A stretch of DNA of 20,000 bases, from positions 2,715,245 through 2,735,244 of the forward strand of contig OZ374564.1 of NCBI GenBank assembly GCA_977862235.1, read 5' to 3'. The notes below the pieces were generated by a model. The model did no database searches. It had not been told where the DNA came from and saw nothing but the letters and a program-made list of their open reading frames with translations. Below are positions 1 to 20,000 of the stretch, piece after piece; the stretch's first letter is position 1; each line of letters begins with the position of its first letter. A program made the translations under genes and the position numbers. Origin of the DNA: Dudresnaya verticillata. Lineage: Eukaryota.

Positions 1-513
1 ACCGCGATCTGGCTCACAGCGCGTGCGGATGGGAGTTCACATAGCGGGCTGCAGGGAACAGCGAAGGAGGCACGAATTTTGTTCAGCGGGCTCGGCGCGG
101 ACGAGCTAATGGGCGGGTACAAGGGCCGACACCGGACGATATACCGGACGGAGGGCGTGAACGGTGTGCTGCGAGAGATGGACGCTGATTTGAGCAGACC
201 GTGGTTTCGGAACCTAGGTAGGGACGACCGGCTTGTCGCAGACCATGGCAAGGAGGTCCGTCATCCGTTTCTGGATGAGGACCTCATCGAGTTTGTAACT
301 GGCCTCCCTTTGGAGCGGCACGTTTGTGACCTCTCAAGACCAGATGGAATTGGCGATAAGCACCTGCTCAGGCGCGCCGCAATAGTTCTTGGTTTGTCGG
401 CTGAGACGGCAAGCGGTTCGAAGCGAGTGGGTCACGGAGCAAGCAGGTCATTGAGCGCAAAGGTTCTTGTTGAACATTTGGAGGCAGTTTTTGGCTTAAG
501 CCAAAGTCTCTAA
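1..513 (+). pseudogene. ASNSD1: C-terminal part of an asparagine synthetase domain-containing protein (ASNSD1/YML096W-like), apparently truncated; runs in from the window edge
   Basis: Frame +1 is open from base 1: TAIWLTARADG...ARILFSGLGADELMGGY..RHR...RNLGRDDRLVADHGKEVRHPFLDE...GDKHLLR.AA..LGL...KR, which are characteristic ASNSD1 motifs. The expected KRAIQFGS motif stops at KR (~426) and unrelated sequence follows. A GT right after KR could instead be a splice donor. Confidence 0.8.
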
Positions 514-649: not shown

Positions 650-1950
650 GTACCCCAGACTCGCAGCAAGTGAGAGGAAGCATTGACGAATTCGATTGCG
701 GCGAACGTTGCGCGTGGTACCGTTGAAGGTTGCTATTCGATCCAAATACTCGTCAGATTGGGCTTCACTGCCCAACCGCACAACATATCGCGCCATTAAG
801 CTGGTATTGAAAAAACCGTATTGATCAAGCTGTAAATGTTGGAAAGGAGCTGTCACAGACGCTGATGGAGTGTAAGAACACATTGAGAGTTACGCTGCTT
901 CCACTGTCGACAATCGATACTACAGCTCAGGGAAAAATTCGCTCTCTGGATACAATCACTCTGAAGGAAAGGTCAGCGACGTTAAGTTCGCTAGAGCAGG
1001 CCGCGCTGGACATCGAACAGATCCTCCAACTCAACATCTTGAAAATGTTTCCGATATTGAAGAGGCAATATCAACGCTTTTACAAAGCAGTAGATTCCAG
1101 AGCACTTGTGTTCCGCGACACAGTGCGCAGCCTGCTTCCCCAGGTGAGGGACGGAAACACAGATCAGGCCGAAGTCATGCGCGATCTTGAAAAACCCATC
1201 TGCGTTGCAAAACACCAGGCAGAAGTAGCTCAGGACTTTATTGAGGCGAAGCAACAGGACTGCCGAGTTCTCGATGTGACTACTGCGAATCTCTTCAAGC
1301 ATGGCTTCGAAGACTACCGCGATTCAGTAGATAATCTTGCTTCCGTCGTATCAGAGAATAGCAAACCGCGTCTATTGCTTTCTTTCGCTGGGATTAAGGC
1401 GACACACAGATTTGAGAATCAACTCCCCCCGTGCTTCTCATGCTTCTGGAGAGAGCATATCGAGCTCTGAGACGTCGCCTGAAGGGGACCACTCGGCCAG
1501 TGACATTGATGACGAAGATGAGGAGTGGTTTGAGGACAAGGCGAGTTTGGAGTATTTGGGAAGATCCTGTGAGGTTTTGCGAAAGCTGAGGCATAACAAT
1601 CGTCTAGCTGAGTTCGAGGCCTTATATGGAGTGACGACTGCTGGTCGAGCATTCCGCGCTGACGGCCGTAAAATGAAGAGGACTCGTATCGGAGATATTG
1701 TCCTAGAGGCAAACGGACGACGACAAATTGTCACTCCTGTTATGGTTGGACCTCCGAATCTTTCATGCACCGTTAACAAGCAGACTGTCAAAGTCGCATG
1801 GCATCCTACTGATAGCGAAGTTCTTCCTGCAACGGCGTTTCTAATCTCCTATCAACCTACACGGAATGCCGCTCTCGACGAATTTGATCAAGCCGTCGCA
1901 GCCAATGAGCCAGTCGAGTACTTGGTGCAGCCTGATGGGGACAGCGTCCT
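650..1950 (+). pseudogene. Frameshifted stonustoxin/verrucotoxin-like (SNTX MACPF end, helical FAT, thioredoxin-like) gene fragment followed by a partial fibronectin type III domain
   Basis: Frame +1 from 811: IDQAVNVGKELSQTL...LRVTLLPLSTID...MFPILKRQYQRF...LLPQVRDG...LLLSFAGI. Frame +2 from about 1440: EWFEDK...GDIVLEANG, then FN3-like GPPNLSCTVNKQTVKVAWHP...AFLISYQP. Motif order and spacing match the SNTX family as recalled. Frameshifts near 810-820 and 1415-1450. Confidence 0.6.
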
Positions 1951-1959
1951 TGCTTCTGC

Positions 1960-2383
1960 GTCACAGATGCTGTGCATCTGGAAGGCGTCTTTGACAACGC
2001 ACGCCACTTTGTTGATCACGCGCTGGGAGCATCAGAAGATCCTGCAACATGCCAGTGCAGACCGGTTTGGCGTGCAGTAGCGTGATGTCCTGAATGTGTC
2101 GAAAGAGCTCGTCAGTTGTGTATCCAAAAGCATGTCTCCGTGTGTGTAATGTGACGTGGTCGACCCGGAACTGGCGCTGTCGACCAAGGAGAGCAAGTCG
2201 GCTGCGCTGCTGTTTTACTTGGGTGTTGTGCTGCGCCCGACCAGCGACGCTAGCCAGAAATTGACCGAACGGGATTTGGTTCGTGTGTCGTCCATCTTCG
2301 CGGTGGAGATGGGAATGGTAGCCGTGCTAATGAAACCCACCGAGGCAATTGAACGAATGAGGGTTGATGACGCAGAACGCTAG
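1960..2383 (+). pseudogene. Degenerate helical (HEAT/TOG, possibly CLASP/Stu1-like) gene fragment
   Basis: Frame +2 read through two stops: KILQHASADRFGVQ*RDVLNVSKELVS...CV*CDVVDPELALSTKESKSAALLFYLGVVLRP. Weak by-eye resemblance to the CLASP segment QLLKKMGADLLGSVQ...IVDQTQTPNLKVKVAILKYI. Confidence 0.3.
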
Positions 2384-2400
2384 CTGGGGGGCGTCGAGCG

Positions 2401-2736
2401 CAGAAGCACGCGGCTCGCCATCGCGGCAAGGTCAAGTCTTTTCCGAGGGATGACCCCAAGAATCCGTGCCACCTCACCGCCTTCATGGTCTACAAGGCCG
2501 GTACGACCCAAATCGTCCGCGATGTTAACAGGCCAGGTTCCAAGCTGCACAAGAAGGATGTTGTCGAGGCCGTGACTGTCACTGAAACTCCACCAGTCGT
2601 GGCCATCGGCGTTGTGGGGCTCACTGAAACCCCATACGAACTGCGCTCGATGACGACCGTTTGAGCCGAGCATCTCTCTGAGGAGGTCAAACGTCGTTTC
2701 TACAAGAGCTGGTATCGCAGCAAGAAGAAGACATTT
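2401..2736 (+). pseudogene. RPL3: 60S ribosomal protein L3 (uL3) N-terminal fragment with an internal stop; missing from the ORF track
   Basis: Frame +1: [114 protein letters not shown] at 2662-2664 sits at a probable Trp codon. The start and the C-terminal two thirds are missing. Confidence 0.95.
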
Positions 2737-3445: not shown

Positions 3446-3456
3446 GACCCGCGACC

Positions 3457-3696
3457 TGGCACGTTTACTCAATGGAGTGGACTCCGCACAGAATTGCCTT
3501 CTTTCATGACGGTAGGCAGATTGCCGATGCATATGACAAACCGCGCAACCCCACGAAACGCAACTGGCCATTTGATGGGGAAACCCCTTTCTACCTCATT
3601 ATCAACAACGCCATACACCCGAGCTGGGGAACTGAGCCTCAAAACCTTGAATCGCATGTACTGGAAGTTGATTATATTCATTTCAGAGAGTATCCG
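3457..3696 (+). pseudogene. Glycoside hydrolase family 16 C-terminal fragment
   Basis: Frame +1: WHVYSMEWTPHRIAFFHDG...NWPFDGETPFYLIINNAI..SWG..P......LEVDYIHF, typical GH16 C-terminal motifs (H.Y..EW.P..I.F..DG, WPFD..FYLI.N.A, m.VDYVr). The catalytic ExDxxE part is absent. Confidence 0.85.
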
Positions 3697-5757
3697 ATGC
3701 AGCAATGGTGCGCTCTCCTGCTTGTGTACCTGCCACGGCACTGGTTTGGTCCAGTCTGTCAGTTTGGTCTATCTGTGTCCAGTACTGCACTGTAGTACGC
3801 AAGACCGGCCGACTGCCGTCACAAGAGAAAAGTGTGCCCTTATTCAAACCATTGAACCACATCGGACGTTTTACTGTTTCAGTCCACTACCCTCTCACGG
3901 TCAGCAAGGGCTGAGCAGACCGGCAAATAAGATGGTGAAGGGCGCCGAGCGAACAAACGAAGCGCGAAACTTGTCGAAGAAGAAGCAGCTCTGCAGCAGC
4001 TACAAGAAGTGCGGCGCACTGTAGTAAGAAAAGAGCGTACGTCTGTTCTGGGAACAGAAGTCCAACACGAGATATCGAGACATTGGGATATGGTTGTCAC
4101 ACACGAACGAGTTGTAAATGGCACTCTATTACACAGCACTGTCGTCGAGCACTACTTGCACATGGTATGCGCAGTGTTGAGTGCGTGAGAGCGACGAGAA
4201 CGCTACTTGTATATGCATGAGGATAAAAGATGTCGGAGGCGAGGCTATATCGACAACAATGCACTGACGCTAACATGGAGTACTAATCTAAGCGGACTGC
4301 ATGGTGGAGATGGAGATTGCAGAGCAGACGTGGTGGCTTAGTGGATGAGGAAGCGGCAGAAAGCCAACTCGAGAACGACTTAGTTCTGGCTGCTTCATGC
4401 AAGCAGCTTAGGATGCGCTGGAACATGCTGTTCCGAACTATCTACAAACTTCATCGAACAATCTTGGCATCACCAGCGGTGACGATTCGATACACAGCAT
4501 GGGGGCTCGGGACCAGGTAGCAGATGAGGTGCTTTGGATGACGGAGCTAGAAGGGCTCGTGAATGGCTGGTGCCGCAACTATAGGAGTCGGTTCGGATTA
4601 TAGCGTGTGCTCCAGGGCTTGGAGGAGCTTGTTCCACTCTTTTGTTTCTAGCATGATGCTCAGGCGCCGGTTGGAGTACAATGCAGTGGTGCTGCAGCTA
4701 TTTGAGCCGTCTTGGAACCTCTATTCGCCCCTGAAGCACCACAAGCCCGGAGTCAAGAGCATCAATAGGAGGGCACTGTGCAATAGAAAGGTGGTATCGC
4801 GGACTGCCTGGGGCTTTCACAGTCTCTCTGTGGCTGCGTCGGTTCCCCCGTGTCGACTCGAACTGACAAACAGTATCGCAGCCAGAATACAATGGTAGTC
4901 AGCTCTGACCCCGTAATAACGGGCTATTCTGGCAGTTGTTCTCGCAAAGGATGGAAAGGGAGGCTTGCTACGTTCCTTCTATCCGCACAGTAGTAGCAGA
5001 AACTTGCTTGAAAGGTGACTCTGCGTATGTGCGGCCTGCGATGTGAGGATCTGTGATGATCTTGTCGTCAGTCTGCAGTTCTGACAAAACCAGCAATGGC
5101 TGCTCGTGTAACATATCCGCCACAACTACGCAAAATTGGCCATTGATCAATCGTGCATAAGTTCCTCTTCATTCATGGTTGCAGCACGTCCAATGTTAAT
5201 TGAAAAGCCGTGCGAGTGAGCTTCTGGAAGACACGACTGTGCGGTACGATTGCAAAACCTGATATCAACGGTAACACGTTTACAAGTGTGTTCACGCTGC
5301 TCAAAAACGAAACTCGTCGAGCTGCGACTCAGCGAACATTCGGACGCCTTAGGACTTAGCCTTGTTTCAACTCTTAGCGAATACAACATATTATATTGCC
5401 AGAGCCACGGCATCCTAGAGGGACAAGTCTAGAGGTACCCCTAAAAGGCTGCAACTAGAGTTCGAAGCATTTAGATGGTGCTGAGGGGCATAGCTGAAAA
5501 GCCGCAGTCGCTCTTGTTGAGAACTCGATGGGGAGTCTCCGTTTACTCGTAGGTATTTCTGATATGGCGTGCGGTACTGGGAACTGTTATCTACCGTGCT
5601 GTATTTATCTTGACAGCCAATGTGTCTCACTCACGCTCACGCATCGACTTTTGTGTCTGCACATGTCAACCAATTTTGAGGTTGCATGTTACGTTGGCGT
5701 TGCAACCCGACTGAGCAGTTCCGCCCCCCATTGGTTGCGCCCTGGGTGATCATGACC

Positions 5758-6023
5758 GGCGTTGGGGTGTGTGTGTGTCCGTGTGTGTGTGGGTGTTGTA
5801 ACGGGCGTTGCCGTTTTTTGCGGCGGAAGCGGGCGTTGCGGTATGTGTGTGTGTGCGCGGTAGTGTGTGGGTGTTGCGCAAGAAGCGGGGGGTGAGGGAT
5901 ATGTGCGTGCCGGTGTGTGTGGGTTTTGCGGAAGAAGCGGGCGGTGAGGTGTATGTTCGTGCGGGTGTGTGTGGGTGTTGCTGCGGAAGCGGGCGTTGCG
6001 GTGTGTTTGTGTGTGTGCGTGTT
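5758..6023. repeat. Degenerate TG-rich tandem repeat, ~52-56 bp unit
   Basis: GAAGCGGG anchors at 5826, 5882, 5934 and 5986, interleaved with (GT)n runs and GTGTGTGGGT(G/T)TTG motifs. Confidence 0.75.
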
Positions 6024-6758: not shown

Positions 6759-6814
6759 GAATCCGGATCCGATCCGGATCCGATCCGGATTCAGAACCGG
6801 ATTTAGAACCGGAT
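6759..6814. repeat. Short CCGGAT repeats with 11-12 bp period leading into the left array
   Basis: CCGGAT starts at 6763, 6774, 6785, 6797 and 6809; the first three sit inside ATCCGGAT palindromes. Confidence 0.9.
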
Positions 6815-7224
6815 AGCACCGTAATATTACGGTGCTCTCCGACGCGAGGCCCTAACCGCCGCAACCGAATCCGCGAACGGCTCACCGCCGTGCGCGTCAA
6901 GAACCGGATAGCACCGTAATCCTACGGCGCCATCTGGCGAGCGGTTCACCGCCGCGCGCGTCAAGAACCGGATAGCACCGTAATCCTACGGCGCCATCCG
7001 GCGAGCGGTTCACCGCCGCGCGTGTCAAGAACCGGACAGCACCGTAATCCTACGGCGCCATCCGGCGAACGGCTCACCGCCGCGCCCATCAAGAACCGGA
7101 TAGCACCGTAATCTTACGGAGCCATCCGGCACAAGCCACTAACCGCCGCAGCGGTATCCGCGAACGCCTCATCGCCGCGCGCGTCAAGAACCGGATAGCG
7201 TCGTAGTCTTACGGTGCTCTCCGG
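6809..7224. repeat. Left palindromic-site array: 6 copies of a 34-bp imperfect palindrome
   Basis: Cores start at 6809, 6904, 6968, 7032, 7096 and 7191 (spacing 95-64-64-64-95). Consensus is CCGGATAGCACCGTAATCCTACGGCGCCATCCGG, with GC-rich linkers such as CGAGCGGTTCACCGCCGCGCGCGTCAAGAA. Confidence 0.95.
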
Positions 7225-7241
7225 CTCCAGTCTCGACAAGG

Positions 7242-10200
7242 ATGGCCAATAGTCCGAGGAGAGGGCGAGGAGGGAAGAATCGAGGGAAGCTGCCATCTGT
7301 CCGTGGTAGGCGGCCACGAGGAGTAACCGCCGTGCCTCCTGCAGCCGACCCAAATGATACTCCTCCGGCAGGCGAAGCTGACCCAACTGTTACTCCTCCG
7401 GCAGGGGACCCAACTGTTGACAGCAGCTCTAAAGCAAGGTCGAAGGCGACACCACCGAAGGAGGTTTCTGAGGGGGTAGCAGGTGACGCCCCCCCATCTG
7501 TACGGAAGCCTTCTTCAAATTTGAAGAAAGCATCCGAAACCGCGATTGGCCCACGACTACGGAGCGAGACAACTGCAACGGCCCCTCCGCAGTCTTGCAG
7601 CCAGGATGATTCATCTCTGACGCCTGCAGTAGCGGGTAAGAGCACAGGGACGCCCAAGAAGAATTCTGGGGAGCCGGGAACGAAGGCGTCCTCGGGTGGA
7701 GGGGCCGAGAAACGAGGTGGTGATCCCACATCGAAACCTCCCCAAAAAGCGGGTAAGGTCAAGACCGCACTCCCAAGAAACGTGGGAAAAGGCGATGAAG
7801 GCAGAAGTCCGCCTGTATCGCGCAAACCAGTACCGCGCAAACCAGCAACCCGCGATTTTGTGGAGAAGGGGTCGTCAGAAGTCGGCAAATCCGATGGAGC
7901 TGTGCACCCCTCACCGCCGCCGAAAGGGACCCCAAGGGCTCCGCCCGGGCCGCCAGAAGCGGCTCCGAGTGCGCCGCCAAAAGCGGCCCCGAGTGCGGCC
8001 CCGAGTGCGCCGCCAAAAGCCGTCCCGAGTGCCCCAGCTGCTGCTACAGCTGCGAAATCCTCTCAATCAGGTCAAGGGGTGCGACCGGCATCGGGCGAAG
8101 AGTCACCAGCGATTGCAAAAGCTGCGGGGAAACATCCAAAGCCCGCCGCCCCAACCCAACCAACGCGGCGGAATAGGGCATCCGATGGAAACCTCCCTAG
8201 CACGGGAAGTGCAACTACCGGTAAGACGAGAAACAGCCGAGCCCCTTCTGGACTGCGCAGTCAAGCTGCGCACAGTGACGCAGGCAAAATGCCGGTATCA
8301 AGTAAGGGTCCTCCAACCAGTGCTGGCGAACCAGTGTACTACAACGGGAAATTTACCGAATCGGTCACCGGCGTTGGAGAGGCTTCTGCGACGGGCACCA
8401 CAATGTCGATGAAGTCTAAAATGCCCCAGCCTGCAATCGTTCTCGAGTATTGGGACAGTTGGAGGATGGTGAACCGGCCTGGTTCAGATCTTACACAGTT
8501 ATTCAAGCAGCCAATTGGACATGCTCTATACCCGAATAATGGAGATGGGCAGAAGTGGCCCGTCGCAATACCACTGTCAAACATTCGGATAGCAACGGCG
8601 AACAATATTCGTGAAGTGCAAGAATCGTTTCTAAGTGGCGGGGATGGAGAGGCAAGGTGGCATGAGGGTTTAGGCGCTGCAACCCTGATGACGACCGCAG
8701 CTGCGCTTGGAATTCAAGTCCCTGACGAGTATCTTGAGAGGATACAAATTGCTGAGAAGTCCGCTCCAGGGAACCCGGCTACAGGACCAATTCACCTCTA
8801 TCGTTACAAGAAGAGGTACCGGCCCCCCCTTCCAGACGCTTGGAAGCTTCCGCCATTTGGCGATGCATATGTCCCGCCCGATGCCCGCATTGGAATCGAG
8901 GATGGTAACGTGAGACTGTCCGCTGCCGCGATCACGGGCGTTGAAAAAGTTCGAGCGCACGTTTCTGTTTTTGTTATCCCTCAACAGCAGCTTGAGGGGA
9001 TGACCGGTGATCCGTGTGATATCGCTGCTGCTGGGAACTGGCTGGAAGGGATGATGACCACAGTTGCAAACAGGCTTAACGAGGCAACTGCCAGTATTGG
9101 TACGACCACTCCTGTTCAGATGGCCCTGTCGTGTGCCCGACTGCGTACAGGTACCGCCCGGCAGCTCCCGTCTCGTGTATGGATGCCACAGTCGGATAGG
9201 ATCGGTTCGAAGAACAAGACCCTAAGCGAGGTCAGGGCAAAACTCAGGGAGGCTCTCGACGATATAATCGTCATCTCTGATGAAGAAGATTGTGCAGAAC
9301 ACTCCGATGAAGACAAGCAGGCCAGTCAAGAGAGAAACGACACAGAAGGAGCTGATACGGCCCCGGTGGGCCCGGAAGCGGCCGCCGTAAATTTACCAGG
9401 CACTCGGTCCCATGGCGCCTCTACCCTCGTCCTGCCTATTCCAGGCGAGGATGAAGCTATGTCATACATAGGTACCATCCGAGAAGCTTCGAAGCAAAGG
9501 AACAGCGAGGCACCTCCCCCTGCCCGTACTGAAGCTGGTTGCCAGGATCCCGCGGGCATCAAACCGCGGGAAAAGAAGAACTATGAGATAGCCCCTTGGT
9601 CTGGCGTGATCCTGTCGACAAACACACCGGGATATGAGGAGAGTCAGCCGCGGGTACCGAATGCAAGCGAGTATCTGGCCGGGGCTTTTGTAGCAGGTGA
9701 ACGCCACGGTATAGTTGCGCGTTCTGTGATTGGAGATTTGAAACCCGCAGAGAAGCGCAAGAGGAATGAAATGCGGAAGAAGCGGTCGGGTGAGAATGGT
9801 CTTTCCGCGGAACAGTCTGAGGCTATGAAACGCCTTCGAGTTCAGACGCATGGCGAGGAAGGAAGCCGAGCAGTCCCTGTGGAGGACCTAGAAGAACATC
9901 AGAAAGCCGCTGTGGAAGAGGCGAAGGAAAAGAAGACCAGTGACAGACAGTCGTTCTTGGAGATGGCCAAGGAGAACTCTGATTTCTTGTTCGTGTGCGG
10001 CGGTGTTGAGATAGTCGAGAACAAGATTCAGCATCGCTGTATGGCGTGTTGGCTAGACTATCAGTTGATTCGGCATGATAAGGCATGCACGTGGGCCCTG
10101 GAAGTGCTGGATGCACGTGATTCTCCGGTGGAGCTTGGTGGTGTCAAGCGGCCTTTCGTGCTTCCGTACGAGGGCGGGAGGTACCGTTGGATGAAGACGG

Positions 10201-11909
10201 AGATCAACAAGGCGTGCGACATGTTGTTCACCCCGCTCCACCATGCTTCCGGTCGTCGCCTGCTCGGTGAGGGCACAGCTCGCAGGTACAAGAATGACGA
10301 TGTCGCCCTGTACAACATCATGGAGGGCGAAAGGCGTCTGGTTCGCAGTGAAGTCACAGGCGTAGCGATGGTGACGGCAGTCCAGCGCCTCGATGCCTAC
10401 AACGAAGCGACGGAGACGGGGAAGGCGGCCATTGGAGGATATCGACGGGCAAAGCCGTCGACAAATCCAGAGAAGTGTCTGGAGGAGCCGCAGTCCGAAC
10501 ACTACTACTACCAGGAGTCAAAGTTCTCGGCCCAGACCGCCTTATTAGCAGAGGCTGCAAAACTTGGGGCGAGGGCGGCAGTTGCAGCGACACGGCTTTG
10601 CTGTGGGCTTCTCGGTCTTCGTTCAGTGAACTGCATACTCCTGGCCGGGGAATGCGAGAGTAGGTTACCCCGACGGACGTCGGAGGCATATGAGTGGTTT
10701 GCTATTAACGTTTGGCATCGTCGCCCCCAGACGAGACATATGTTGCATAGGCGGGTGAGAAGTGGGACTGGAAGTACGACTGGAGCTGGGTGTGTACTAA
10801 GAATCGTGAACAAGGAGCAGATGGCCTGGGGGATGCACAGTCTCGATAATCACATGTGTGCCATTGTGGTGATGGCTCTGCCTGGGCTTCAGAAGGTCCT
10901 TCGCGATCTGGTATTTACGGACAAGTATGATGTGGACTTGTGGGCTGGCACGAAGCAGAGTGGGATGCGTGTTAAGGACCCTGTCGACCGGGCCCGAATG
11001 GGTGGAAGCCGCTTTGACTATGATGTCTTTCGTGTTCTGGAGAAAGCAGCTGGTCGATACAAGTGGTTGGAGGACGCCTGGCATGATTTGGAGATTCCCT
11101 CGCGTATTGCCCGTGTGCTGTACGCTATTCAGACTCGCGACCCGTGCGTTGGGGACTTGATGTCCCAATGCATCATTCTCTCGCAGAGACCTGATGATGA
11201 AGCCCACCAATCGAAGGTGGTGATGCTTGAATTTGTCAACCAGGACGAGTTTAAGAAAGACCGCGACATAAACGTGAGGCTGACTGACAGGCTTCCGGAA
11301 AGAAGATCTCTGGGGCCAGGAGGTGGGGCATCTGGAGAGGTGATGTCGAATCTTTCCGGGGGCGGCGGGAGTCGAAGGGGTAGTAAAGGACGTAGGGATA
11401 GCAGTAGTAGCGCTGGTCGCGGTGGTGGAGGCGTGGGTGGTGGAGGCGGAAGTGGTGGTGGGCGTAAGAGAAACGTTTCTTGGCGCCGCGCGCCGCACAA
11501 CACCGTCGGAAGCATAACTGTTGGCAGAGCTACTGAGGCGCTGCGTGTGGCAGATGCTGAAGAGCGGCAGAAGAATTTTACTATGGTTCTTGCTAGTGCT
11601 TTCGACTTGTGTAGAACGCACCCGGAACTGATTGACAATCACGATCTGGACAAGCGTGCCGAATTACTTGAAGGGATTCTGAATCAACCAGTAGATGGAC
11701 TGCCGGACATCAAGAAGGAGTTGCCGGAACCTGAAGAGTTTATGGACGAGGTTCAAATTGTGCATGAGCATGTTATGACTCAAGTGCAGTCTGCCAGTCA
11801 GTCTGCCACTCAAGCCGAGTCCCGGAAGGAAGGGCGAAAGCAAGCAGAAGATCATGCAAGGGGTGGTATCGATAGTGATGAGGAGTCTTCAGAGAATGAA
11901 TCCACGTAG
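7242..11909 (+). CDS. Intronless 1555-aa protein: long Pro/Ala/Ser/Lys-rich disordered N-terminus, CxxC-x8-H-x3-C motif, putative tyrosine-recombinase/protelomerase-fold C-terminal region, Gly/Arg-rich linker, acidic tail
   Basis: Uninterrupted 4668-nt ORF with ATG in AAGGATGG context. Motifs: LGEGTARRYKND, LCCGLLGLRSVNCILL (R1127), LRIVNK (K1191), PSRIARVLYA (R1288/R1291), IILSQRPDDEAHQSK. The ORF itself is certain; the family assignment is tentative. Confidence 0.85.
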   Translation: MANSPRRGRGGKNRGKLPSVRGRRPRGVTAVPPAADPNDTPPAGEADPTVTPPAGDPTVDSSSKARSKATPPKEVSEGVAGDAPPSVRKPSSNLKKASETAIGPRLRSETTATAPPQSCSQDDSSLTPAVAGKSTGTPKKNSGEPGTKASSGGGAEKRGGDPTSKPPQKAGKVKTALPRNVGKGDEGRSPPVSRKPVPRKPATRDFVEKGSSEVGKSDGAVHPSPPPKGTPRAPPGPPEAAPSAPPKAAPSAAPSAPPKAVPSAPAAATAAKSSQSGQGVRPASGEESPAIAKAAGKHPKPAAPTQPTRRNRASDGNLPSTGSATTGKTRNSRAPSGLRSQAAHSDAGKMPVSSKGPPTSAGEPVYYNGKFTESVTGVGEASATGTTMSMKSKMPQPAIVLEYWDSWRMVNRPGSDLTQLFKQPIGHALYPNNGDGQKWPVAIPLSNIRIATANNIREVQESFLSGGDGEARWHEGLGAATLMTTAAALGIQVPDEYLERIQIAEKSAPGNPATGPIHLYRYKKRYRPPLPDAWKLPPFGDAYVPPDARIGIEDGNVRLSAAAITGVEKVRAHVSVFVIPQQQLEGMTGDPCDIAAAGNWLEGMMTTVANRLNEATASIGTTTPVQMALSCARLRTGTARQLPSRVWMPQSDRIGSKNKTLSEVRAKLREALDDIIVISDEEDCAEHSDEDKQASQERNDTEGADTAPVGPEAAAVNLPGTRSHGASTLVLPIPGEDEAMSYIGTIREASKQRNSEAPPPARTEAGCQDPAGIKPREKKNYEIAPWSGVILSTNTPGYEESQPRVPNASEYLAGAFVAGERHGIVARSVIGDLKPAEKRKRNEMRKKRSGENGLSAEQSEAMKRLRVQTHGEEGSRAVPVEDLEEHQKAAVEEAKEKKTSDRQSFLEMAKENSDFLFVCGGVEIVENKIQHRCMACWLDYQLIRHDKACTWALEVLDARDSPVELGGVKRPFVLPYEGGRYRWMKTEINKACDMLFTPLHHASGRRLLGEGTARRYKNDDVALYNIMEGERRLVRSEVTGVAMVTAVQRLDAYNEATETGKAAIGGYRRAKPSTNPEKCLEEPQSEHYYYQESKFSAQTALLAEAAKLGARAAVAATRLCCGLLGLRSVNCILLAGECESRLPRRTSEAYEWFAINVWHRRPQTRHMLHRRVRSGTGSTTGAGCVLRIVNKEQMAWGMHSLDNHMCAIVVMALPGLQKVLRDLVFTDKYDVDLWAGTKQSGMRVKDPVDRARMGGSRFDYDVFRVLEKAAGRYKWLEDAWHDLEIPSRIARVLYAIQTRDPCVGDLMSQCIILSQRPDDEAHQSKVVMLEFVNQDEFKKDRDINVRLTDRLPERRSLGPGGGASGEVMSNLSGGGGSRRGSKGRRDSSSSAGRGGGGVGGGGGSGGGRKRNVSWRRAPHNTVGSITVGRATEALRVADAEERQKNFTMVLASAFDLCRTHPELIDNHDLDKRAELLEGILNQPVDGLPDIKKELPEPEEFMDEVQIVHEHVMTQVQSASQSATQAESRKEGRKQAEDHARGGIDSDEESSENEST
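7957..8035 (+). repeat. In-frame coding minisatellite (AAPS/APPK units)
   Basis: Repeated GCGGCCCCGAGT / GCGCCGCCAAAA units encoding EAAPSAPPKAAPSAAPSAPPKAVPSAP. Confidence 0.85.
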
Positions 11910-12133
11910 GTTGCAACGCTTCGGGCGCCTCCTGCAGTGAACCTGCTAACCAGTAAAGTTCAAACGTGTACATTCTATCAGCTGATGCGCCTAGTGAGAG
12001 GGAGAGTTACGAACGGTCTGTAGACATGTTGGTATCCGACAGACAAGGACAATACATTTACTAATATTGGATCTCGGAAAGGACCGATATAGCTGGGCGG
12101 AGACGTATGGGGAATTGTAGCAAAGTGACATGG

Positions 12134-12508
12134 TTAGCGATTGGACTTGCGTCTCAGCCTGGACCTCGGAGGCGGAGGCGGCAGGACATGCTTTGCGCGG
12201 TCAATAGCAAGGAATCTTTGTTCGAGTCTCTGGAATGCTTCTTCTCTGGATAATTTGGGTTTGTTTGGCTGCTCTTGCCGAGTTCTGGCTGGTCGAGGTG
12301 CGGTTTCCTTTCGGGCAGGTGTGTTTTGCGTTCTTGCACGACGGGAAGTCTTGGAGATACGACCTCGAGAATGACGGCGGTGGGACTTCACAGGTGGTTT
12401 CCTTGGAATGGAGGAGCGAAATCTTCGCCGCGAGTCCTGTGTGAAATCAAAATCGGAGCTAGAGTCAGTGTCTACGTCAGCCGGACCGGGGGCAACACTT
12501 CGAGGCAT
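12134..12508 (-). CDS. Small Arg/Lys/Ser-rich basic protein (124 aa), convergent with the large ORF
   Basis: ATG-initiated ORF: acidic DTDSSSDFDFTQ motif, then a highly basic region and a predicted helix SREEAFQRLEQRFLAIDRAK. It ends about 225 bp from the large ORF stop. Confidence 0.5.
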   Translation of the reverse strand: MPRSVAPGPADVDTDSSSDFDFTQDSRRRFRSSIPRKPPVKSHRRHSRGRISKTSRRARTQNTPARKETAPRPARTRQEQPNKPKLSREEAFQRLEQRFLAIDRAKHVLPPPPPRSRLRRKSNR

Positions 12509-13190
12509 TCTTGAGGGGGTAGGTATGAAAGGACTGGATGTGTGGATGGCGGTGTCGCGGTGAGAGAACTGTAGGGGGAAGCAAACCTATGAATAGCAAT
12601 TCAGAGCCGAGCAGTTGATGAAACAGCAGTACATCTTGAAATTGAAAATTTGTAATCGGGGTAATGAAGCACTCTTAATAAATCACCAATCTCCGGAGAG
12701 CTCGTACGTACCATCGATGTTTAATCGATTCAGTCGACAATGGAGGTTGTCTATTCGAAAGCACTGTAATCAAGCGACACATTTACGTCATTTACGTCTA
12801 CGTCTTCATTTGCGGAAACGAACGCAGGTAATTGTCCCGGTGTTGGATACTAGGGAAGAGGTTAGAGGTTAGGGGATTGGAGGGCCGTATCAATGGGGTA
12901 ATAAGTGGACGCAGGACTTCTGCGTGAAGTCAAAATCAGAGTCGGAGTCCTATTTACAAGTTCGCAGAGCCGCGCGCAACTCATCGAAGAATTCTTGATG
13001 GAGTGAGCTAAGTTTCGACTGGAAGTGATGTGTGTGTTGCAGGCCCGACCCAGCGAGGCACCGCCTGATGAAACAACGGTGCATTTCGAAATTCAAAAAT
13101 TTGTAATCAGAGCAATGAAGCACTCTTCAGTAATTGCACTCGTCAGTAATCGCCATTTCCGGGTTTCTACAGAACGTACCGTCAATTTAG
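12430..13190. repeat. Diverged ~450-480 bp tandem duplication
   Basis: GTGAAATCAAAATCGGAG (~12441) vs GTGAAGTCAAAATCAGAG (~12924). GATGAAACAGCAGTACATCTTGAAATTGAAAATTTGTAATCGGGGTAATGAAGCACTCTT (12617) vs GATGAAACAACGGTGCATTTCGAAATTCAAAAATTTGTAATCAGAGCAATGAAGCACTCTT (13067). Confidence 0.65.
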
Positions 13191-13242
13191 TCGAGATTGT
13201 AGTCTGTCTCCTTGCAAGCCCTCTTTCAAACACAGCGAGACG

Positions 13243-13294
13243 ACATCTCCCTCTGCAGAATTGAGGGAGTCCACATCTCCCTTTGCAGAATTGA
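13243..13294. repeat. 22-bp direct repeat with 30-bp period, just inside the right array
   Basis: ACATCTCCCTCTGCAGAATTGA at 13243 and ACATCTCCCTTTGCAGAATTGA at 13273. Confidence 0.9.
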
Positions 13295-13318
13295 ACGCAG
13301 TTCGCTATCCCGCTTTGA

Positions 13319-14214
13319 CCGGAAAGGACCGTAACCTTACGGTGCCATCCGGTTGTGCATGTTTAACAAGCTATCACCGGATAGGACCGTAATCTTACGG
13401 TGCCATCCGTTTATGCATACTTAGCAAGCCATGACCGGATAGGACCGTAATCTTACGGTGCCATCCGGTTGTGCATACCTAGTATCCGATGACCGGATAG
13501 GACCGTAACCTTACGGTGCCATCCGTTTATGCATACTTAGCAAACCATGACCGGATAGGACCGTAACCTTACGGTGCTATCCGGTTGTGGATGCTTAAGA
13601 AGCTATCATCGGATAGGACCGTAATCTTACGGTGCCCTCCGCTTGGGCATACTTAGCAGGCTATCACCAGATAGGACTGTAGTAGTACGGTGCCATCCGT
13701 TTATGCATACTTAGCAAGCTATGACCGGTTAGGACCGAAATATTACGATGCTATCCGGTTGTGCATACTTAGACCGCTATGAGCGAATAGGACCGTAATA
13801 TGACAGTGCCATCCTGTTGCCTAGCAATCTCTGACTGGATAGGACCGTAATCCTACAGTGCCATCCGGTTGTGCACACTTAGCAAGCTATGCCCGGATAG
13901 GACCGTAATATGACAGTGCCATCCGTTTGTGCGCACTTAGCAAACTATGCCCGGATAGGGCCGTAATATGACAGTGCCATCCGGTTGCGCATACCTAGCA
14001 AGCTCTGACTGGATAGGACCGTAACCGGATAGGACCGTAATATGACAGTGGCATCCGGTTGCGCATGCCTAGCAAGTTCTGACTGGATAGGACGGTAATC
14101 CTAAAGTACCATCCGGTTGTGCATACCTAGCAAGCTATGACCGGATAGGAACGTAACCTTACGGTGCCATCCGGTTGTGCATGCTTAACAAGCTATCACC
14201 GGATAGGACCGTAA
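13319..14214. repeat. Right palindromic-site array: 58-bp units (34-bp palindrome + 24-bp linker), 15 full and 2 half copies
   Basis: Full cores at 13319, 13377, 13435, 13493, 13551, 13609, 13667, 13725, 13783, 13835, 13893, 13951, 14025, 14083 and 14141; half cores at 14009 and 14199. Consensus is CCGGATAGGACCGTAATCTTACGGTGCCATCCGG + TTGTGCATACTTAGCAAGCTATGA. Confidence 0.95.
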
Positions 14215-16587
14215 GGCTCCCTTTTGCGTTGTGCCTGGCCGCAAATGATATTGCGATATTAGTTCTTGATACCGAAGCGGTGTGCCCTACATCCTAAAAG
14301 TTGGTCAACCAGGCAAGGGCAGGAAAATCTAAGCTGTAGTTTTGGAATGATTCCTGACCATAAAGCCTCAAGCAGGAGACTTTTCCACCATGGAAGCCCA
14401 GTCTCTGGGTGGTTAAAACCGTGCTTGTGAGTGCCTATATAATATCGCTCGTTCCACAGAGGAAAGGAGGGTGAGGAATATACTTCCTTTTATTCTGAGG
14501 GAGGAGACGGTTTTTCAATTCCATGTTGTTGCAGTTGGACGAGGTTCATATCAATGTCAATGCTGGATCGACTGGTGGTCCTTTAGAAGTGCAATAGGAC
14601 AAGAAATGATGCAGTAGAACAAGCGTTGAGGATTGGAAGACAAGTTACAAAAGAAAGATTTAGACAATTGCATGGCGACGGTCACAGGTTGGACTACCTT
14701 TGCTTCGGCTAAACGAAGCCATCCCAGAAAGGTTTGGTTCTGCAAGAAATGTAAGATGATAGCCGGGCATATTCTGCAGGTGTCCCTCACGTGCATCCTA
14801 TCAATGATATCAGTGAAAGGATCACGAAGTAGAATCCCGCAGAATGCGCCCACGTGCGGAAGAAAGCCTGTTCTTGCAATTCGCCGAGATCTCGACAGCT
14901 GAATTCGTCGATTCGAGGCTGGGTAGAGTTCCAGGGAATTCATGTTGTGGCCAGGAAAAATTGGACATGATCGAGGCATGACAATGAAGTTTATTTTCGA
15001 GTATAAATGTTCACCTGTGGGTGTGATTGTATACATTTGTACTGCCCATGGAGAGCAAGTGCAGATGAAAACAGTCGTTAAGGAAGAATTTGTGTAGTTG
15101 TGGAAACCGTGAGGGTAAAAAAACAGTTCGGAGCACCAAGAATGAATATTGCTGAAACAGTTTGGGTGCTGATTATGAAAGTTGCAGTACAAAGCTGGGA
15201 TAGAGTGAGTAGTACCATTCGAAATGTCGCGCGCAAAAAGCTAACATACGCAAGAAGGGGTTTTCCTCTGGTTAACGTGCTTCACAAAGAGGGGTCTTTG
15301 CATTCCAAATGCGTAGAAGGTAAGATTTTGTTTCGTGTTCTCTAACCTTTGCTTCGTCTTGAAGAAAGACCAGTAAGCTAATTGCTTTTTACGCAGGCCG
15401 TGTGATTACAAAACACCAGCATGCAACAGACGAGCTTTATTGGGACTGCCGCCAGTAACTAATTGTACTAACATGTTCGACTCAGGCGCCCGTGTGGTAA
15501 TCCTAATCCTAGCCTACAAGTAAGCTCTGTGCGAGCGGAGAAAAAGTAAAGGCATCGCTCTAATAAGTATCAACGTCACCACGGTCTTTATTGTCTCCCA
15601 TCTTGAAAATCCTTCTCTACAGCGCCGTCTAGTTGTTCTGGCGTTTATGAAACGTCTTCGAACAAACCATCTGCTTAGTGCTGGAGCTCCCCTTTTCCCG
15701 GTTGCAAATCAGCATTGCTTTCGAAGGCTCATTGGAAAATCAGTATCCAGCATTTATGCGTTACGCGATCAGAAACGTACAGTACCAGAAAATAGGTGCT
15801 CAATCCCGTCTACTTCTATTGAGGACCAGTGCTCATCAAGCCTGCCAAGCTCAACGTAAGCGTTGTTTTGCGATTTGAATGGGCGAGTACGTTGTGTGCC
15901 CTTTACAACACAGACCAACAACTTGAATACTGGGTGATGTCAGCTCGTTCGGAGAAAGACTGCGATTGATGTTTTAGCTTAGCTTTGCAAATCTTAGCGT
16001 TGCTGGACCTTCCATTGTTCTCATAATTTTGGATAAACTTCTGTAAATGGGGTGAAAGTCGGAAATAGCTTTCCGGATCTTGAGTGTAGATGCGTTTTTT
16101 CTAATACGAATGCACGACACTCTTCTCGATTCGTACGGTCCCACACTCCACGAAGTCTGGTTACCGTTGCAACAACTATTGCGGGGATGACCAGGCTCGA
16201 AAAAGAGGGATTAACTTTATGTTTGCTTGATCCCAACTGGCCGAGCGCTTTGCCGCGTACAAAGTCACGTCGCCAAGAAGGATGCAGTCGTTGTAGCAAC
16301 AATGCAACCCCTTTAAGCGCATTCCTTTTTCCGTATCCTCTGATTCAGTAGTGTGTTTGAGAGCTTTCTTTGCCGTGCAAGGGCGAAGTTTCGACAAACG
16401 TCTAAATATGTACCGACCTTGCAACTCGCAAGGTCAGCACACCCGACTTGCAATGTCAATGCTCAACGCGCATGACTGGCAAGGTCAAAACACTCAAAAC
16501 GTTAACCACAATGCCCCGTCTGATCTACTTCATTCTGCTCTGTCGCATCGCTTCTGCATGCGTAGATCCACCGGGTGACTCAACTCT

Positions 16588-16647
16588 GATTACCGATGTG
16601 ATAACCAATGTGATAACCGATGGGATAACCGATGTGATAACCGATGG
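16588..16647. repeat. 12-bp minisatellite, 5 copies (GATAACCGATG[T/G])
   Basis: gattaccgatgt gataaccaatgt gataaccgatgg gataaccgatgt gataaccgatgg. Confidence 0.95.
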
Positions 16648-17464: not shown

Positions 17465-17745
17465 CGCGCCAATCAGAAGGTCTGTTCATAACAGGGTTCC
17501 CGGATGAACGGGATTTTTAATTGGCTGCTTCAGTGGGGCGCCACGAGCATACGGCTGGCCCCTAATCGCACCAATTAGAAAGCCTGTTCATAACAGGGTT
17601 CCCGGATGAACGGGGGTTTTAATTGGCTGCTGCAGTGGGGCGCCACGAGCATACGGTTGGCCCCTAATCGCACCAATCAGAAAGCCTGTTCATAACAGGG
17701 TTCTCGGATGAACGGGGGTTTTAATTGGCTGCTTCATTGAGGCGC
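17465..17745. repeat. 102-bp subtelomeric tandem repeat (~2.75 copies) with opposed CCAAT boxes
   Basis: CCAAT[C/T]AG at 17469, 17571 and 17673. Each unit also has the hairpin CCTGTTCATAACAGG (TCTG in copy 1) and an inverted TAATTGG. Confidence 0.9.
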
Positions 17746-18220: not shown

Positions 18221-18394
18221 TTTAGGGGTTATACTTCTATATTATATAGTAACGGATTAGGTAGTTTGGGAGCAAGGATTGTTTGTATGTAAGGGAGCTA
18301 CGGTTTAGGGGTTTAGTATACTTCTATACTATATAGTAACGGATTAGGTAGTTTGGGAGCAAGGATTGTTTGTATTTAAGGGAGCTACGGTTTA
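18221..18394. repeat. 87-bp tandem duplication, each copy headed by a telomeric TTTAGGGG unit
   Basis: TTTAGGGG at 18221 and 18304. The body TATACTTCTATA.TATATAGTAACGGATTAGGTAGTTTGGGAGCAAGGATTGTTTGTAT.TAAGGGAGCTACGGTTTA starts at 18230 and 18317. Confidence 0.9.
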
Positions 18395-18530
18395 AGTGGA
18401 AGCTGGGGAGTAAGGCAGATAGATGCGTAGGTACTTGGTTTAACGGGTTATGGGAGTAGCTGAGATGAAATCTAGCAAGAGATGTATTTAATGAGGTATG
18501 GGTATAACAGTCAGCATATATAATTAGCGG

Positions 18531-20000
18531 TTTAGGGGTTTAGGGGTTTAGGGGTTTAGGGGTTCAGGGGTTTAGGGGTTTTAGGGTTTAGGGGTTTAGG
18601 GGTTTTTAGGGGTTTAGGGGTTTAGGGGTTTAGGGGTTTAGGGGTTTTAGGGGTTTAGGGGTTTAGGGGTTTAGGGGTTTTTAGGGGTTTAGGGGTTTAG
18701 GGGTTTAGGGGTTTTTAGGGGTTTTAGGGGTTTTAGGGGTTTTAGGGGTTTTTAGGGGTTTTAGGGGTTTTAGGGTTTAGGGGTTTAGGGGTTTAGGGGT
18801 TTAGGGGTTTAGGGGTTTTAGGGGTTTAGGGGTTTAGGGGTTTAGGGGTTTAGGGGTTTAGGGGTTTAGGGGTTTAGGGGTTTAGGGGTTTAGGGTTTAG
18901 GGGTTTAGGGGTTTAGGGGTTTAGGGTTTAGGGGTTTTAGGGGTTTAGGGGTTTAGGGGTTTAGGGGTTTAGGGGTTTTAGGGGTTTTAGGGGTTTAGGG
19001 GTTTAGGGGTTTAGGGGTTTAGGGGTTTAGGGTTTTAGGGGTTTTAGGGGTTTAGGGGTTTAGGGGTTTAGGGGTTTAGGGGTTTAGGGGTTTTAGGGGT
19101 TTAGGGGTTTAGGGGTTTAGGGGTTTAGGGGTTTTAGGGGTTTTTAGGGGTTTTAGGGGTTTTAGGGGTTTAGGGGTTTAGGGGTTTAGGGTTTAGGGGT
19201 TTAGGGGTTTAGGGGTTTAGGGGTTTAGGGGTTTAGGGGTTTTAGGGGTTTTAGGGGTTTAGGGGTTTTAGGGGTTTTAGGGGTTTAGGGGTTTAGGGGT
19301 TTAGGGTTTAGGGGTTTAGGGGTTTAGGGGTTTAGGGGTTTAGGGGTTTAGGGGTTTAGGGGTTTAGGGGTTTAGGGGTTTAGGGGTTTTAGGGGTTTAG
19401 GGGTTTAGGGGTTTAGGGGTTTAGGGGTTTAGGGGTTTAGGGGTTTAGGGGTTTAGGGGTTTAGGGGTTTAGGGGTTTAGGGGTTTAGGGGTTTAGGGGT
19501 TTAGGGGTTTAGGGGTTTAGGGGTTTAGGGGTTTAGGGGTTTAGGGGTTTAGGGGTTTAGGGGTTTAGGGGTTTAGGGGTTTAGGGGTTTAGGGGTTTAG
19601 GGGTTTAGGGGTTTAGGGGTTTAGGGGTTTAGGGGTTTAGGGGTTTAGGGGTTTAGGGGTTTAGGGGTTTAGGGTTTAGGGGTTTAGGGGGTTAGGGTTT
19701 AGGGGTTTAGGGGTTTAGGGGTTTAGGGGTTTAGGGTTTAGGGGTTTAGGGGTTTAGGGGTTTAGGGGTTTAGTTTAGGGGTTTAGGGGTTTAGGGGTTT
19801 AGGGTTTAGGGGTTTAGGGGTTTAGGGGTTTAGGGTTTAGGGGTTTAGGGGTTTAGGGGTTTAGGGTTTGAGGGTTAGGGGTTTTTTAGGGGGGTTAGGG
19901 GTTTTAGGGGGGTGAGGGGTGGATTGGGGGTTGGGGTTAGTTGGGGTTGTAGGGGTTTAGGGGTGTTGGGGGGTACGGGGTTAGCTGCTTCGGGGGGGGG
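18531..20000 (+). repeat. Telomere, (TTTAGGGG)n, G-rich strand running toward the chromosome end
   Basis: About 1.35 kb of the 8-mer TTTAGGGG, with T4/T5 and G3 variants proximally and a near-perfect block at ~19390-19670. The last ~130 nt are degenerate. Confidence 0.98.

Follow-up and report, generated by a model that had tools for sequence, protein, structure and literature searches.

The closest described counterpart of the locus reported here is Plavaka accessory gene 3 (PAG3), which red-algal DNA transposons carry as an accessory gene. In the part of the preprint available to us (bioRxiv 10.1101/2025.02.11.637652), PAG3 is described with an N-terminal ParB-like domain detected by HHpred only (E 0.29) and with a putative 2-oxoglutarate (2OG) oxygenase, a weak assignment (E 0.016); across Plavaka families, inverted repeats are arrayed in tandem beside the gene. 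The same part places Plavaka within EnSpm and reports that PAG genes shuttle among Plavaka, Mutator, Zisupton and Fanzor-bearing elements. We analyzed a stretch of 20,000 nucleotides from Dudresnaya verticillata (contig OZ374564.1, positions 2,715,245 to 2,735,244; hereafter the window), in which an open reading frame (ORF) of 1555 amino acids (aa) lies between two tandem arrays of a 34-bp palindromic core. The window is eukaryotic, as indicated by a fragment of the 60S protein uL3 (RPL3) inside it and an array of 8-bp telomeric units at its end. The explanation that we favor, with reserve, is that the ORF is probably a PAG3-type transposon-borne helper gene, whose predicted ParB-like domain would load the protein on the arrays and let it act on its own element.

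The window was scanned for the core using one right-array copy as query and 20 shuffled windows as control. Six 34-mers were found on the left (6809-7224), 15 on the right (13319-14174) and none elsewhere in the window, and no shuffled window contained any (0/20). The initial annotation had described two tandem arrays with periods of 64/95 and 58 bp, unrelated GC-rich and AT-richer linkers and a common core in a single orientation, a description that our measurements bear out. Left cores, preceded by short partial units from position 6759, are spaced by 95, 64, 64, 64 and 95 bases, and right cores by 58 (12 times), 52 and 74 bases, with a half copy reaching 14214. The linkers, with 67% (left) and 41% (right) GC and a best ungapped match of 8 out of 24 positions, are unrelated. 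In the core, a 2-bp centre separates two arms of 16 bp, which contain two mismatched pairs; because the left and right consensus sequences differ at 2/34 positions as written and at 6/34 with one of them reversed, both arrays carry the core in the same orientation. The most variable part of the core is positions 17-20 (21/84 cells versus 46/630 at the remaining positions, both arrays included). Conservation of the core alone, also claimed in the initial annotation, is limited to the comparison between arrays, because within each array cores drift about as fast as linkers (mismatches in core versus linker of 50/510 versus 38/288 on the right and 17/204 versus 10/150 on the left). The 34-bp motif had no matches in viral contigs and nine single matches in metagenomes, none of them accompanied by a 34-mer within 11 mismatches or by a gene of the family. 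As a side observation, a GT-rich array with a 52-bp period (5758-6020) adjoins the left side of the GC-rich stretch in front of the left array, and it may be part of the same element as the palindrome arrays.

The 1555-aa ORF is open throughout, without in-frame stops, as had been claimed. It gave no match at E<=1 against Pfam, PHROGs and NCBIfam, and nothing credible in PDB sequence searches, where the best hit (E 0.0032) covered a short stretch. Single-sequence structure prediction reached a pLDDT of 31, and Foldseek against PDB and BFVD returned no matches at E<=0.001; the matches listed in the fold searches included no chain of a recombinase, a protelomerase or an oxygenase, a result that does not exclude those folds. 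An Atlas search with aa 900-1345 gave no usable match, which says nothing on absence or novelty. With aa 881-1350 as query, HMMER run in full over 1.84 billion representatives detected 12 homologs at E<=0.001, the best with E 7.5e-52 and 35% identity, although a word-index search had retrieved none. Ten of the 12 were looked up, and all ten are unnamed Logan, JGI or ENA proteins. In the alignment, conservation is concentrated in block 1 (aa ~395-640) and block 2 (aa ~905-1340), which lie between low-complexity stretches; aa 1-390 and ~650-900 are of low complexity or poorly conserved. Both blocks are present in four homologs (P0002, P0004, P0006 and P0011) and in a cluster mate, P0014, and most of the others are fragments; P0005 and P0010 span consecutive parts, both on 1795-base contigs, which suggests one broken copy. 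P0002 also has an N-terminal Cys/His-rich segment (residues ~75-125), possibly a zinc finger, that is absent from the window protein. Related loci were absent from viral contigs, 0 of 162 stretches were confirmed in metagenome contigs, and block 1 had no plasmid match.

Three weak, concordant lines, together with an invariant DGxxR box (aa 554-558, positions 8901-8915; 6/6 family members covering the position), predict a ParB/sulfiredoxin-fold domain with a GxxR nucleotide box in block 1. No helix-turn-helix (HTH) was identified, and the arginine patch of ParB is only partly kept. This informative domain (aa ~415-621) lies outside the aa ~900-1340 range that had been proposed for testing, and aa ~915-960, where the ParB motif had been located by eye, proved to be the wrong place. 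Block 2 was modelled mostly as long helices (13-row alignment, block within a larger model). Its conserved residues are H931-x-C-x-x-C936, R1049, D1051, G1125, C1138, W1158-H1159, D1232, D1259, W1280 and R1288, and the His/Cys cluster may constitute a metal site. Profile matches of block 2 to recombinase, PhyH, methylase and SET sets were all at background (for PhyH, P 0.56 with a profile from four sequences only). A by-eye placement of an oxygenase at aa ~1200-1330 proved wrong.

In the helper-gene explanation, a dimer would read the two 16-bp arms and ignore the variable centre. Loading and spreading of bacterial ParB are gated by nucleotide, and nucleotide binding might gate both steps here as well. 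The C-terminal block would be delivered to the chromatin of the element, where it could keep the element active or else regulate its own promoter, since 17 bases separate the end of the left array from the predicted ATG. Local tandem duplication may have multiplied the site on two occasions, each time with other flanking DNA, in the manner described for VANC target arrays (PMC5735166). The carrier transposon would be absent from the window or unrecognisable in it, and what remains would therefore be a cassette, stranded or non-autonomous, amid subtelomeric gene debris. Several results count against this explanation. Block 2 lacks the HxD/E...H iron triad of 2OG oxygenases, since its only conserved histidines, H931 (HxCxxC) and H1159 (W-H-x-x-P), have no D/E at +2, and a mostly helical model with a His/Cys cluster differs from what is published for PAG3. 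Pfam and our own hidden Markov models (HMMs) detected neither a DDE transposase nor a PAG1 or PAG2 relic, the genes expected within ~15 kb in a Plavaka element, in the window, where the flanks are decayed and the left side spans 7 kb. Finally, 40 candidate inverted pairs were obtained in a scan of the window for terminal inverted repeats (TIRs), none of them with a target site duplication (TSD) of at least 3 bases. A more specific proposal, which we regard as possible yet doubtful, is a ParB-parS-like module of the eukaryotic nucleus, in which a nucleotide-gated ParB clamp on its own flanking 34-bp arrays spreads an undescribed helical metal-binding effector over the element. If this were true, the protein would be a PAG3 sister with a different business end, or else the PAG3 C-terminus would not be an oxygenase.

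The initial annotation had regarded the ORF as recombinase-fold-like and had put forward a Crypton/Starship-like tyrosine recombinase or a protelomerase element, which would excise by recombination between a left and a right core. Palindromes of 34 bp in direct orientation are indeed reminiscent of loxP, and the ORF has a charged stretch on which a recombinase HMM obtained 6.1 bits, the best decoy reaching 5.2 bits. However, the R-H-R-H/W set and the catalytic tyrosine were not found: in aa 905-1340 no tyrosine is kept in more than 4/8 or 4/9 aligned members, C-terminal tyrosines occur in at most 3/7, and neither conserved histidine has an HxxR context. Profile matches to tyrosine recombinases remained at background (P 0.19; P 0.14-0.56 across blocks). 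A recombinase requires an identical site centre between partners, and the core has no conserved asymmetric spacer of 6-8 bp like that of loxP. The symmetry of the core continues into the 2-bp centre, and variability peaks at positions 17-20; both features fit recognition of the two arms by a dimer better than they fit a crossover site. This explanation is largely refuted and, in our view, very improbable. From the related claim that the core is a protein-binding or recombination site bound by the enclosed protein, the binder is retained as plausible, by analogy with the published PAG3 layout, and the recombination site is dropped.

Three other explanations seem unlikely to us. The one we rank highest among them is a host-domesticated or virus- or plasmid-derived ParB-parS-like module that would tether or partition chromosome ends or extrachromosomal DNA; an intact ORF among decayed genes near the telomere would suit it, as would a predicted ParB-like fold together with palindromic arrays, but many of the homologs are fragments, no ParA, replicase or viral gene was seen among the window frames with Pfam, and neither the motif nor the family turned up in viral contigs. 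Ranked below it is a non-autonomous element of CACTA/EnSpm-like type, in which the arrays would serve as subterminal repeats, their binder would be encoded elsewhere and the ParB-like ORF would be cargo. One motif repeated on both sides with differing linkers resembles the ends of Spm, and the described membership of Plavaka in EnSpm agrees with this view, whereas the lack of any TIR with a TSD speaks against it, and the predicted ParB-like domain of the enclosed protein would be a natural partner for a palindrome. Lowest of the three we place neutral growth, in which a single hairpin-prone seed would have given rise to both arrays as minisatellites that have nothing to do with the function of the ORF. 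The similar decay of cores and linkers within arrays, the presence of several other tandem arrays in the window and the hairpin folding of the core in 3/4 copies tested (z -4.8 to -6.3) are what such growth would leave; against it, the segment common to both arrays stops exactly at the palindrome ends, and both arrays flank a ParB-like gene, the same pairing that the available preprint text describes across Plavaka families (bioRxiv 10.1101/2025.02.11.637652).

The features of the window are listed in Table 1. The small convergent basic ORF reported in the initial annotation exists, and it is indistinguishable from chance, as an ORF of at least 124 aa arose in 33/300 shuffled spacers; its start falls inside one copy of the ~480-bp duplication. 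The claims that nearly all other genes are decayed and that the cassette lies about 4 kb from the telomere were both confirmed. Only fragments of RPL3, GH16, Sel1 and a toxin-family domain are present, the asparagine-synthase-like frame exits the window start and receives no verdict, and 4.3 kb separate the end of the right array (14214) from the start of the telomeric array (18524). The Stonustoxin_helical and fn3 pieces look like a broken gene of a fish-toxin-related family within a subtelomere of non-animal appearance. The 8-bp telomeric unit is close to the T5AG4 telomere given in the Bostrychia preprint (bioRxiv 10.1101/2025.02.11.637652). Taken together with the GH16 fragment and the lack of introns in the ORF, this resemblance points to a probable red-algal host. 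Two further candidates did not hold: decayed methylase/SET pieces noted by eye at ~15400-16200 were rejected, and Pfam lent no support to a hAT-like remnant at ~5050-5300. The window gave no match to Rfam.

Table 1. Coordinates of the features in the window (positions counted from its first letter).
Feature	Coordinates	Strand	Remarks
Asparagine-synthase-like gene, C-terminal end	1-513	+	Open from base 1; runs off window start
Stonustoxin_helical piece	865-1467	+	Pfam E 1.5e-7; followed by weak fn3 piece (E 0.14) at 1673-2077
60S ribosomal protein L3 fragment	2371-2730	+	In-frame stop; decayed gene
GH16 glycoside hydrolase fragment	3448-3792	+	E 3.3e-4
Left array	6759..7224	+	Six 34-bp palindromic cores at 6809, 6904, 6968, 7032, 7096 and 7191; GC-rich 30/61-bp linkers
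Intact intronless 1555-aa ORF	7242..11909	+	0 stops; putative start at 7242
Predicted ParB/sulfiredoxin-fold (ParB/Srx) domain	8484..9104	+	Block 1, aa ~415-621; large insertion (about 70 residues)
Conserved C-terminal block	9990..11234	+	Block 2, aa 917-1331; modelled mostly helical; no assigned fold
124-aa basic ORF, convergent	12134..12508	-	No Pfam match at E<=1
Decayed tandem duplication, ~480-bp period	12426..13317	.	Copies 12426-12845 and 12910-13317; fills gap between ORF and right array
Right array	13319..14214	+	Fifteen full 34-bp cores; 24-bp AT-richer linkers; partial copies
12-bp x5 array	16587-16646		Near telomere
Sel1-repeat ORF, 101 aa	16804-17109		Near telomere
102-bp x2.8 array	17465-17745		Near telomere
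87-bp x2 unit with telomere-like seeds	18230-18394		Adjoins telomere
Telomeric array, 8-bp unit	18524..19964	+	Context only, outside module

The locus does not appear to be the new recombinase or telomere system that the initial annotation had proposed; the telomere-proximal reading has a single locus behind it, and the layout has a precedent in print in PAG3. What makes the locus valuable is the clean candidate site, along with a C-terminal domain that awaits explanation. The gene is intact, its candidate site of 34 bp is sharply delimited and is common to two independently grown arrays, and therefore the self-binding idea is directly testable; such a test would reveal whether a ParB-type clamp functions in a eukaryotic nucleus.

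With the bacterial ParB/Noc CTPases (parS/NBS sites) and sulfiredoxin, the window protein shares the predicted fold and a GxxR box, and ParB/Noc palindromic sites are likewise clustered. It differs in the insertion within the domain, in the lack of an identified HTH and in the 34-bp length of the site, and the setting is a eukaryotic nucleus with no ParA seen in the window. Literature on red algae, ParB and transposons yielded only bioRxiv 10.1101/2025.02.11.637652 and PMC12477816, and the following comparisons extend as far as the accessible portions of the sources. Sola1-1 of Ectocarpus carries an accessory gene of 1104 aa that combines a ParB-like domain with a DNA methyltransferase (PMC12477816), and is thus similar as a large ParB-like transposon accessory protein, but block 2 of the window protein gave no methyltransferase signal (P 0.44). 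Fusions of a ParB-type HTH with a methylase are described in chlorophytes (PMC4738411). VANC, an anti-silencing protein of VANDAL transposons in Arabidopsis, parallels the proposed role of the window protein, as it is the accessory protein of a transposon and the motifs that it targets increase in number as tandem repeats form (PMC5735166); VANC motifs are of 9 bp, however, and VANC contains DUF1985/DUF287, for which the window ORF had no Pfam match. A 5-methylcytosine target is not evident in our locus, because CpG is not depleted in the window (observed/expected 0.90-1.15). The right array shows no CpG-biased decay (4/8 CpG sites versus 10/21 other C/G sites). From PAG3, the locus also differs in having arrays on both sides of the gene, with differing periods. 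We have not filed it as a PAG3 member, because the oxygenase triad is lacking. By layout, and as likened from the published description rather than from sequence, the locus appears PAG3-like: inverted-repeat tandem arrays adjoin the gene, the protein has a weakly detectable N-terminal ParB-like domain, there is no Pfam/InterPro match in PAG3 either, and binding of the protein to its own arrays is proposed for both.
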